Origin: a virus
Length of the DNA: 44,763 nucleotides
Direction: 5' to 3' (one strand)
UHGV virus genome: UHGV-0246887
The notes below the pieces were generated by a model that ran no database searches, had not been told where the DNA came from, and saw only the letters and a program-made list of their open reading frames with translations. This document shows positions 36,571 to 37,128 of the stretch, one piece after another. Each line of letters begins with the position of its first letter. Position 1 is the stretch's first letter. The position numbers and the translations under genes were made by a program.

Positions 36571-36601
36571 CTCTAAAAAGAGGCCCGCAGATTAGCGGGC
36601 C
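36571..36601 (-). terminator. Terminator/attenuator after first early gene (minus strand)
   Basis: Minus strand GGCCCGC-taatct-GCGGGCC followed by TCTTTTT. Confidence 0.5.
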
Positions 36602-36609
36602 GGAATACA

Positions 36610-37128
36610 TTAATCTTCCAGTTCGAAATAGGTTTCGACGATTTCTTTTAGCTCTGTGTGGAAGTCTTCGACGTCGTCATCTTCCAGCTTGGCGATTGAT
36701 TTGATCTCGAACGATTCCAGCAGGTCGTCGAATTCGTCGTTCGCATCGTCGTCATCACCACCGGCGATAATCGCGGCATACTGTTTGATTTCGTCGCGCA
36801 TCTCCGCCAGCGGATCGGCATCTTTCTTACCTTTGCCTTTCGCCGGTGCTTTTTTGGCCTTAGCCGGTTTTTCGTCTTCGGCGTCTTCGTCGTCGTCATC
36901 TTCTACGACTTCTTTTTTGGCCTTACCCTTCGCCGGTGCTTTTTTAGCTTTAGCCGGTTTTTCGTCTTCGGCGTCATCGTCGCCATCTTCGACAACTTCT
37001 TTTTTGGCCTTAGACGGCTTCTTGTCTTCCTGCTTACCAACGGCAGCGCCAACGGTTTCATAATGTTTAGCGATGGTTTCTAGTGCTACTACGCCGCGAG
37101 TGATCAGGTTTACGATTTGCTCAAACAT
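36610..37128 (-). CDS. Acidic repeat protein, first gene of early operon
   Basis: GGAGATATACC-ATG start; internal repeats KKEVVEDxDDxDAEDEKPAKAKKAPAKGK; extremely D/E-rich. Confidence 0.55.
   Translation of the reverse strand: MFEQIVNLITRGVVALETIAKHYETVGAAVGKQEDKKPSKAKKEVVEDGDDDAEDEKPAKAKKAPAKGKAKKEVVEDDDDEDAEDEKPAKAKKAPAKGKGKKDADPLAEMRDEIKQYAAIIAGGDDDDANDEFDDLLESFEIKSIAKLEDDDVEDFHTELKEIVETYFELED

Follow-up and report, generated by a model that had tools for sequence, protein, structure and literature searches.

The minus-strand gene at positions 36610-37128 of the virus genome UHGV-0246887 (44,763 nt; the whole stretch analyzed is called the window below) encodes a strongly acidic protein of 172 residues and behaves as a core gene of the replication block in Dhillonvirus and its relatives. 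We tentatively favor a role for this product as an abundant, non-enzymatic adaptor or accessory protein of the phage replication-recombination machinery, which would comprise a helicase-primase, a PD-(D/E)XK nuclease, a T7 gp2.5-type protein that binds single-stranded DNA (SSB), and PolA. We do so because of the invariant synteny of the gene, the fixed end domains of the protein, a conserved hairpin behind the gene, charged motifs encoded in the same operon, counterparts in outgroup phages and the precedent of T7. An earlier examination of the letters (the sequence-only reading) had leaned toward an anti-restriction DNA mimic of the Ocr/ArdA type while warning that the function was open. That warning was justified, since no assigned function was found in Pfam, NCBIfam, the PDB or PHROG; the preference itself is not supported.

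The acidic-protein gene keeps its place in the replication block

Gene order was scored in 103 fetched loci from Dhillonvirus and Guernseyvirinae, a set in which certain contigs occur twice, provided that enough flanking DNA was present. The helicase-primase gene always lies upstream of the acidic-protein gene, and the nuclease, SSB and PolA genes always lie downstream on the same strand, an order that is kept even where the helicase-primases are 26-48% identical. Dhillonvirus and some relatives encode the helicase-primase on the opposite strand; Jersey-like phages encode it on the same strand and have a small helix-turn-helix (HTH) gene between the two. Zero to three small variable genes separate the acidic-protein gene from the nuclease gene, all of them located after the hairpin described below. 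Because these accessory genes vary while the acidic-protein gene stays constant, it behaves as a core gene, and it always occupies the first position of the predicted nuclease-SSB-PolA transcription unit. Co-inheritance with the module of gp2.5-type SSB, PolA and helicase-primase was found in all loci that reached far enough and in the outgroups as well.

Five outgroup phages carrying a DUF2800 nuclease, DUF2815 SSB and PolA block were reached by a spread tblastn: Serratia Scapp, Marinobacter PS6, Salmonella SD-14_S20 (a member of the Casjensviridae), Corynebacterium Dina and Bacillus LY1. A related-locus search for outgroup SSBs gave in-group phages only. In each of the five, the protein encoded directly before the nuclease measures 158-224 aa and has a helix at its N-terminus, a middle of low complexity and a C-terminal region of ~55 aa that is helical. 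These proteins are encoded at the following positions of their loci:

L192, 4124-4600: outgroup protein in the slot before the nuclease
L193, 7073-7747: outgroup protein in the same slot
L194, 4132-4614: outgroup protein in the same slot
L195, 6997-7509: outgroup protein in the same slot
L196, 6694-7359: outgroup protein in the same slot

The family hidden Markov model scores 62.9 bits with Scapp gp55 and 20.2 bits with Bacillus LY1_49, in which the domain is duplicated. The outgroup C-terminal domains are far less acidic, and the outgroup SSBs end in purely acidic tails that have a hydrophobic tip. These comparisons suggest that the domain is older than its extreme charge. From this small sample, the enterobacterial lineage may have acquired the acidity and the basic SSB tails together, and the proteins may be part of a much wider, undescribed domain family tied to the nuclease-SSB-PolA module.

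The window is a Dhillonvirus, an HK578-like siphophage of E. coli; the genus comprises HK578-like virulent E. coli siphoviruses with genomes of 43-46 kb. The 1.4 kb surrounding the gene is 98% identical to Escherichia phage GeorgBuechner (BASEL Bas16) and matches 175 phage records, nearly all of them from Dhillonvirus. The acidic-protein gene is at the head of the minus-strand block, adjoining a divergent control region, and is the first gene of the leftward arm:

Up to ~24 kb, plus strand: structural genes
~24.3 to 37.1 kb, minus strand: block encoding PolA, the gp2.5/Enc34-type SSB and the PD-(D/E)XK nuclease
36310-36561, minus strand: next gene of the operon, 83 aa, PHROG 4965, homolog of HK578 gp43, starting ~20 nt after the hairpin
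36610-37128, minus strand: coding sequence of the acidic protein, 172 aa, ATG at 37128 and TAA at 36612-36610, PHROG 3127
37537-37866, plus strand: HTH protein of 109 aa, HTH_23/HTH_28, PHROG 9366, divergently transcribed
From 37.5 kb, plus strand: block encoding the HTH protein and the helicase-primase

The promoter-proximal open reading frame (ORF) of 172 codons proposed by the sequence-only reading was recovered in an ORF scan and is preceded by a GGAG Shine-Dalgarno sequence 7 nt upstream of the ATG (37139-37136) and, further upstream, by a near-consensus sigma-70 promoter. The span originally given for it, 36571-37128, contains the gene; its start at 36571 is misplaced, falling just beyond the T-run of the terminator, whereas the coding sequence ends at 36610. 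Some GenBank records annotate an N-terminally extended ORF of 232 aa that uses the leader. This version lacks credibility, because relatives that lack the leader element still begin with MFEQ: 4 of 18 aligned sequences are without ~150 nt of the leader and keep this start, which is also that of all distant homologs. The label "prohead core protein" was rejected as well; the gene lies in the replication rather than the structural block, and PHROG 3127 carries no functional assignment. With "13.88 kDa late protein" as a third variant, the database labels for the family conflict with each other and are unsupported. GenBank labels also vary for the 109-aa HTH protein (transposase, resolvase and "DNA recombination nuclease inhibitor gamma"). 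This protein looks like a plain HTH regulator from its sequence, and the Gam label is unsupported.

Two constant end modules flank a variable, charge-neutral spacer

AlphaFold2 was run on the window protein with a 23-sequence alignment. The predictions show three modules, namely an amphipathic helix at the N-terminus, a disordered spacer that is charge-neutral and variable in length, and a helical, very acidic domain at the C-terminus:

37051-37128, minus strand: N-terminal amphipathic helix, codons 1-26, MFEQIVNLITRGVVALETIAKHYETV, helical in both AlphaFold2 models
36820-37050, minus strand: predicted disordered polyampholyte spacer, codons 27-103, predicted local distance difference test (pLDDT) score <50 for residues 23-101, net charge ~0
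36839-37012, minus strand: 90-bp tandem repeat within the spacer, 2.0 copies, 90% match (Tandem Repeats Finder)
36613-36819, minus strand: acidic C-terminal helical domain, codons 104-172, net charge -21, three predicted helices (AlphaFold2, alignment)

Model 1 has a helix at residues 2-26, no structure over residues 27-105 and a C-terminal part with pLDDT of 73-89 (mean pLDDT 56.6). Model 2, of the shortest natural variant (P0098), has the same helices at a mean pLDDT of 47.2, with the C-terminal domain at ~50. We regard the predicted secondary structure as solid and the tertiary fold as provisional. The model of P0098 was built to look for docking of the N-terminal helix onto the C-terminal domain, but its confidence is low (pLDDT 47).

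The N-terminal helix has a hydrophobic moment of 0.47, and one heptad register places hydrophobic residues at 7/7 a/d positions. It is the best-conserved part of the family, with the consensus ML-x-KFL-x-LLERFVVAHE-x-IAAN throughout and R11, A15 and E17 invariant across 33 distant members. Helices in the C-terminal domain are predicted at residues 106-123, 127-139 and 150-168. A conserved motif, KL-x-D-[DE]-D-[VL]-x-x-F, lies within the domain, which terminates in ...YFELED and has several acidic positions that are invariant among close and mid-distance relatives.

Charge is distributed unevenly over these modules. The whole protein has an isoelectric point of 4.44, with 52 Asp/Glu and 29 Lys/Arg residues (net -23), and 17% of its residues are Lys or Arg. 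Residues 31-103, the repeat and linker segment, contain 23 Asp/Glu and 22 Lys/Arg (net -1), whereas the non-repeated C-terminal 69 residues contain 26 Asp/Glu and five Lys/Arg (net -21, 38% Asp/Glu). The description of an extremely acidic repeat protein is therefore misleading, since the repeats are charge-neutral, and that of Asp/Glu-rich tails applies to the C-terminus alone; the N-terminus is a 26-residue, amphipathic and mostly uncharged helix. The internal repeat is indeed present twice, as units of 29 and 30 aa (AKKEVVEDGDDDAEDEKPAKAKKAPAKGK and AKKEVVEDDDDEDAEDEKPAKAKKAPAKGK). Acidic blocks (EDDDDEDAEDE) alternate in the spacer with Lys/Ala/Pro blocks (KPAKAKKAPAKGK), and megablast breaks the repeat region into two pieces in records of other length.

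Variation was evaluated among 96 Dhillonvirus cluster representatives. The N-terminal module is constant in length with a mean identity of 97%, and the C-terminal module has a fixed length of 68 aa with a mean identity of 95%. The spacer ranges from 21 to 85 aa, and 95 distinct versions occur among the 96 representatives. Most spacers contain one (39) or two (52) acidic blocks; four contain none and one contains three. Net charge is near zero in the spacer (median +1) and -17 to -21 in the C-terminal module. As shown by these alignments, tight constraint appears only on the two end modules. Because the length and sequence of the spacer vary while both end modules stay fixed, the repeats are on this comparison the least constrained part of the protein, an indel-prone spacer that seems to be selected for composition.

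The sequence-only reading had likened the Lys/Ala/Pro blocks to histone H1-like DNA-binding repeats. HupB, through its C-terminal tail, and AlgP are bacterial nucleoid proteins with Lys/Ala/Pro-rich H1-like repeats, and the spacer shares blocks of the PAKAKKAPAKGK type with them. If the protein acted in this manner, the KPAKAKKAPAKGK blocks would bind and compact phage or host DNA, and the acidic parts would supply an opposing charge that is auto-inhibitory or chaperoning. Distant relatives have KRGRP, KPKRKPRK or RGRGRGR patches at the equivalent place, and the sole weak PDB sequence match is to nucleoplasmin (E = 1.2), reflecting mixed acidic and basic low complexity. Unlike those of HupB and AlgP, however, the spacer blocks alternate with equally strong acidic blocks, vary in number and are sometimes nearly absent. 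Instead of a net-positive Lys/Ala/Pro array, the spacer is net neutral in a protein with a net charge of -23, and profile scans returned no DNA-binding fold or motif. Dhillonvirus variants with a spacer of 21-30 residues have no acidic block and little or no Lys/Ala/Pro repeat, but both of their end domains are intact; since natural variants trim the spacer and keep the end domains, the repeats appear to be dispensable in sequence. The blocks are thus present as described, but an H1-like DNA-binding function is very unlikely for a net-neutral spacer that variants shorten to 21 aa.

The protein defines a family known by architecture and position

The window protein matches PHROG 3127 over its full length (E = 1.7e-53; residues 1-172 against profile positions 1-178 of 178). 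Among its homologs, labeled hypothetical proteins, are HK578_044, bas16_0048 and Sodalis phage SO-1 gp46; those from Guernseyvirinae include S102 orf47 and K1ind1 ORF34. The PHROG 3127 homologs share the three-part architecture, the genome position and the downstream hairpin. A word-indexed search gave 166 relatives, and an exhaustive profile search of 1.84 billion representatives gave only 68 clusters at E <= 1e-3. A profile built on distant members reached 2035 protein clusters, mostly from siphovirus contigs of ~40-45 kb. A tblastn search with a distant member matched 450 phage records, among them Dhillonvirus, Jerseyvirus and Kagunavirus as well as relatives that infect Serratia, Edwardsiella, Enterobacter, Raoultella and Klebsiella. 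Throughout the family the middle is charged and of low complexity, always with at least one basic patch (KRGRP, KPKRKPRK or RGRGRGR), and the C-terminal domain measures ~60 aa and is duplicated in three members.

The window protein, 33 family members and five outgroup proteins were scanned against Pfam, NCBIfam and PHROGs, and no known family beyond PHROG 3127 emerged; hits to BUD22, GET2, TonB, CobT and nucleoplasmin reflect low complexity only. PDB sequence searches with full-length and C-terminal-domain profiles gave nothing below E = 0.5, and in a fold search nothing matched beyond generic three-helix bundles.

A strong promoter precedes the gene and a conserved hairpin follows it

The gene is flanked by the following transcription and leader elements:

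37325-37354, minus strand: sigma-70 promoter TTGACA-18-TATTAT, 11/12 consensus positions, conserved across Dhillonviruses
37129-37324, minus strand: 5' leader of ~190 nt, including the GGAG Shine-Dalgarno sequence
~37165-37312, minus strand: optional leader element of ~150 nt, nearly invariant where present
36575-36601, minus strand: intrinsic-terminator-like hairpin GGCCCGC-UAAUCU-GCGGGCC followed by UCUUUUU, beginning 9 nt past the stop codon

The HK578 record annotates a promoter at the equivalent position. From the promoter type and the replication context we infer early expression of the gene. No Dhillonvirus RNA-seq or expression data were found in the literature, and in the single RNA-seq study of a relative (Kagunavirus K1B4; PMC12645636) no class is given for the probable homolog vB_Eco_K1B4_003.

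The optional leader element is present in 14 of the 18 aligned sequences, flanked by GTCGACA...GCCGACA, and 20 of 196 columns vary. Two CCNGG pentamers within it covary as one base pair (C:G, A:U and U:A across phages), and a stem is therefore indicated. The fold stability of the leader is ordinary (z = 0.11), and an Rfam scan of positions 36000-38000 gave nothing above threshold.

A separate mini transcription unit lies just upstream of the gene promoter (37366-37464, minus strand). It consists of TTGAAA-17-TGTAATAAT, an invariant GTCTCATTGTCTCTTATTGGTTA, a strong hairpin and T15 (T9-T15 in relatives). Its hairpin has a compensatory stem in one relative, GTCTC occurs twice, and some records annotate a 36-aa ORF. 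By its layout, this unit could specify a small RNA of ~60 nt, or it could represent operator or origin repeats.

The hairpin and U-tract that the sequence-only reading had placed directly downstream of the gene are borne out. The hairpin (36601-36582) has a stem of seven pairs, all GC, closed by a 6-nt loop (fold z = -3.35), and UCUUUUU follows, so that the sequence has the GC-rich stem-loop and immediate U-run of an intrinsic terminator; the PTXU06 record annotates a terminator. Among 81 non-identical contexts, 77 have a hairpin (ΔG <= -8 kcal/mol) after the stop codon, representing 36 distinct sequences, and it nearly always starts within ~12 nt of the stop codon. Stems are clade specific (GGCCCGC/GCGGGCC, GGGCGGC/GCCGCCC, GCCCCGG/CCGGGGC and GCGGCC-UUCG-GGCCGC), and in some Dhillonviruses the whole hairpin is inverted. 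Because the arrangement recurs in distant relatives with different stem sequences, the pattern is one of structural conservation with compensatory change and indicates that the hairpin is functional rather than a chance occurrence. The U-run is good only in Dhillonviruses (five to six U in the next 8 nt); other clades have UUUAA.

It had further been proposed that the hairpin could restrict early transcription to this first gene. The gene context shows that such a restriction could not be complete. The start codon of the 83-aa gene is located ~20 nt past the hairpin, so this gene needs read-through; the replication genes follow, and the sole promoter-like site downstream of the hairpin is a weak 9/12 match inside the next ORF. 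With the next gene so close and only this site beyond, the hairpin must pass many transcripts. The simplest reading of the arrangement is a dosage step-down that would yield more of the acidic protein than of the enzymes.

The same layout of promoter, first gene, hairpin with T-run and then essential genes without a strong promoter of their own could suit a transcription factor resembling lambda N, which would modify host RNA polymerase to read through its own terminator as a delayed-early switch for the replication genes. The layout is conserved across clades and includes a long leader that is structured in part. Lambda N and other known RNA-binding antiterminators are basic, whereas the protein studied here is strongly acidic, and profile scans detected no likeness to antiterminator or RNA polymerase-binding families. 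Outside Dhillonvirus, moreover, only UUUAA follows the hairpin, which leaves little to antiterminate, and yet the protein is equally conserved. An antiterminator function is highly improbable on these grounds.

Neighboring replication proteins carry matching charged tails

The SSB has an OB fold of the gp2.5/Enc34 type, and structural homology has been reported for the SSB of SECphi4 (bioRxiv 10.1101/2022.08.27.505566). Charged segments of the SSB and of its neighbors are located as follows:

33583-34365, minus strand: SSB coding sequence
33586-33825, minus strand: SSB C-terminal tail of ~80 aa, with three to four alternating acidic and basic blocks
33805-33819, minus strand: [ST][DE][DE]DL site
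34703-34717, minus strand: [ST][DE][DE]DL site
35216-35230, minus strand: [ST][DE][DE]DL site
40118-40132, plus strand: [ST][DE][DE]DL site

The SSB tail of the window reads ...CSDEDLGDDDEDESPRKSKKSKRRDDDDEDDKPRKSKKSKRR...APRKRRRR, with blocks of the form DDDDEDDKPRKSKKSKRR...; that of Jersey-like phages reads ...VDDLEDDEEDEAPRRERRRR. Tail length (24-84 aa) and block number vary between phages. A [DN]DL-x-D start is found in every clade and a PR[RK]xRRR tip, as PRKRRRR or PRRERRRR, in nearly all; two clades end in a short acidic stretch. The SSB tails of T7 and Enc34 are purely acidic, whereas the window-type tail adds basic blocks and the Arg-rich tip.

The motif [ST][DE][DE]DL occurs four times among the 59 putative proteins of the window, compared with 0.11 expected, and is confined to three proteins. 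The sites are at the C-terminus of the helicase-primase (...SATDDDLKD), at the C-terminus of the nuclease (...EATDEDLSNE) with one further internal site in the same protein, and at the start of the SSB tail (CSDEDLGDD). Relatives keep acidic tips (VVTEEDLE, VSDEDLA), and outgroups have equivalent acidic-hydrophobic tips. This pattern suggests that the tips probably dock on a shared partner. In T7-type systems, acidic SSB tails mediate polymerase and primase-helicase contacts, and in T7 itself the polymerase is where the acidic gp2.5 and gp4 tails dock (PMC5686142; PMC13402713). Across clades, the basic blocks of the SSB tail rise and fall with the basic content of the acidic-protein spacer (rho 0.89), a correlation that is suggestive only.

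An adaptor in the replication-recombination machinery is the favored reading

An adaptor role would work as follows. The hairpin, as a leaky terminator or a 3' stabilizer, would let the acidic protein exceed the downstream enzymes in amount. The N-terminal helix would provide self-association or docking, and the spacer would be a flexible tether for which composition, but not exact sequence, is important. The acidic C-terminal domain would bind a basic, nucleic-acid-binding surface of a partner, much as the gp2.5 and gp4 tails bind T7 DNA polymerase. The phage SSB tail, with its Arg-rich tip and its basic blocks, would be the best candidate for this partner, with PolA or the nuclease as alternatives. 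Having an acidic head, a basic patch and a helix of the oligomerization type, a separate protein made in excess would suit a machine wired by charge. Like the T7 tails, the protein would be an acidic element within a T7-type replisome proposed to meet basic partner surfaces. Unlike them, it is a separate protein with a predicted helical domain, a putative oligomerization or docking helix and a long spacer, and its binding to a partner is a proposal made by analogy.

Several observations weigh against this assignment. We infer partner binding from sequence and from the T7 analogy. The correlation between SSB tails and spacers is confounded by phylogeny (approximately five clades) and is not significant within Dhillonvirus (n = 12). 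Charge segregation in the spacer does not differ significantly from that of shuffled sequences (sequence charge decoration z = -1.2). The fold of the C-terminal domain is not robustly predicted in either of the two models (mean pLDDT 56.6 and 47.2), and three of the five outgroup analogues are alike by eye only. Finally, lambda gam likewise sits by recombination genes in a conserved position, so that a host-directed target is possible.

A more elaborate version of the adaptor would be a dedicated electrostatic scaffold, in which an oligomerizing, block-charged polyampholyte with an acidic head gathers the replication-recombination proteins on phage DNA in a multivalent hub resembling a condensate. 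Its partners would be the block-charged, Arg-tipped SSB tail and the [ST][DE][DE]DL tips of the helicase-primase and the nuclease. Valency would be tuned by the fast-changing repeat number, and the surplus of protein that a scaffold requires would come from the leaky terminator. We consider this extended form rather improbable.

A host-directed decoy is a less probable explanation

The acidic C-terminal domain might instead mimic nucleic acid and block RecBCD or a nucleoid protein of the host, as lambda Gam and T7 gp5.9 do for RecBCD and T7 gp5.5 and T4 Arn for H-NS. A decoy of this kind, which would not be a restriction inhibitor, would protect or free the phage's linear DNA during the action of the neighboring nuclease and annealing SSB. 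We judge it unlikely, although several features fit: the net charge of -21 within 69 residues, with several acidic positions invariant among close and mid-distance relatives; the strong host-type promoter and first position in the operon; and the adjoining nuclease and annealing-SSB genes, which resemble lambda gam-bet-exo. Lambda Gam and the C-terminal domain of Red-beta, accessory proteins of recombination modules, are among the closest known systems. Sequence comparisons do not extend this likeness. The family aligned to lambda Gam by hhalign only over a 24-column local match around DDDVEF (probability 0.2%, E = 0.34), which was rejected as evidence, there being no Gam match in Pfam either; searches by PDB sequence and by fold linked the family to no known mimic. 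Because outgroup homologs have far less acidic C-terminal domains, mimicry would not be ancestral to the domain.

Restriction of Dhillonviruses by P2 OLD, which is triggered by RecBCD inhibitors, would be in keeping with such a decoy, but the mutations of the three HK578 escapers of OLD were located in gp43, gp46 and the gp45-46 promoter and none in gp44, the acidic protein (bioRxiv 10.64898/2026.07.10.737580). In the same study, a gp43 frameshift allows HK578 to escape P2 OLD, the other escapers hit the helicase-primase or the gp45-46 promoter, which belongs to the divergent control region next to the acidic-protein gene, and OLD can fire without RecBCD inhibition (bioRxiv 10.64898/2026.07.10.737580).

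Chi sites (GCTGGTGG) also lean against RecBCD inhibition. The window contains eight, six-fold more than the 1.24 +/- 1.08 expected, and 0 of 100 shuffles reached eight:

7962, 15656, 16638, 22465, 24547, 42770 and 43498, plus strand: Chi sites
39687, minus strand: Chi site

This excess, with seven of eight sites on the plus strand, suggests that the phage exploits or tolerates active RecBCD, and it speaks, if only weakly, against a role like that of Gam.

The genome avoids EcoKI sites, and anti-restriction is unlikely

An Ocr- or ArdA-like DNA mimic would block type I restriction-modification or BREX right after DNA entry. Like Ocr (T7 gp0.3) and ArdA, the protein is acidic, small and likely made early, and it possibly shares their oligomeric state. 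It is probably the first product expressed, from a strong promoter, and the charge density of its C-terminal domain (38% Asp/Glu, net -21 in 69 residues) seems comparable to that of Ocr and ArdA. Unlike Ocr and ArdA, it contains 17% Lys/Arg, shows no sequence, profile or fold likeness to them and is encoded by a core gene of the replication module; fixed synteny of this kind is not typical of anti-defense cargo. The window protein and 33 family members matched no Pfam profile of Ocr (E <= 1), ArdA or Gam. No match to the elongated helical dimer of Ocr, which imitates bent B-DNA, was found, nor any ArdA profile or fold, and the structure prediction proposed for recognizing a DNA mimic returned only the generic bundles noted above.

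Plating data from the BASEL phages were also considered. GeorgBuechner (Bas16) plates at ~1 on EcoKI and EcoCFT_I, as would be expected of a protected phage. It has no EcoKI or EcoCFT_I sites, as read from the S5 Table of PMC8594841, and its resistance is therefore explained by site avoidance. PaulFeyerabend (Bas15), in which the gene is present and each system has one site, plates at ~0.01 on EcoCFT_I and ~0.8 on EcoKI (PMC8594841). All Dhillonviruses in the BASEL data are strongly restricted by the type II and III systems EcoRI, EcoRV, EcoCFT_II and EcoPI, and the paper places Dhillonviruses, by comparison with Queuovirinae, among the phages sensitive to type I and type II systems (PMC8594841). 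The window itself has 0 EcoKI sites (AACNNNNNNGTGC) on both strands, compared with 7.43 +/- 2.44 expected from shuffles. Such avoidance would mean that the phage is still exposed to type I systems, as an effective inhibitor would make it unnecessary. No single one of these points is decisive, but all point the same way, and the mimic favored by the sequence-only reading, which finds no profile, PDB or fold match and is at odds with both the restriction of Bas15 and the missing EcoKI sites, has very little probability.

Implications for Dhillonvirus and Guernseyvirinae biology

Few phages of E. coli and Salmonella are isolated as often as Dhillonviruses and the Jersey-like and K1-like Guernseyvirinae, which are widely used in biocontrol and in research on defense systems (SECphi4/18, HK578, BASEL Bas14-18). 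The acidic-protein gene is a universal and probably highly expressed member of their replication block that has contradictory labels and no Pfam family. Dropping it from the candidates for anti-restriction saves effort; what the genome shows instead is EcoKI avoidance and Chi enrichment. The SSBs, polymerases and helicase-primases of these phages are the triggers of Retron-Eco8, Borvo and OLD. If the adaptor reading is true, the protein would be a new stand-alone component of the well-studied T7-type replisome and recombination machinery, and it would help to explain the odd SSB tails and the acidic tips shared by the proteins around it.

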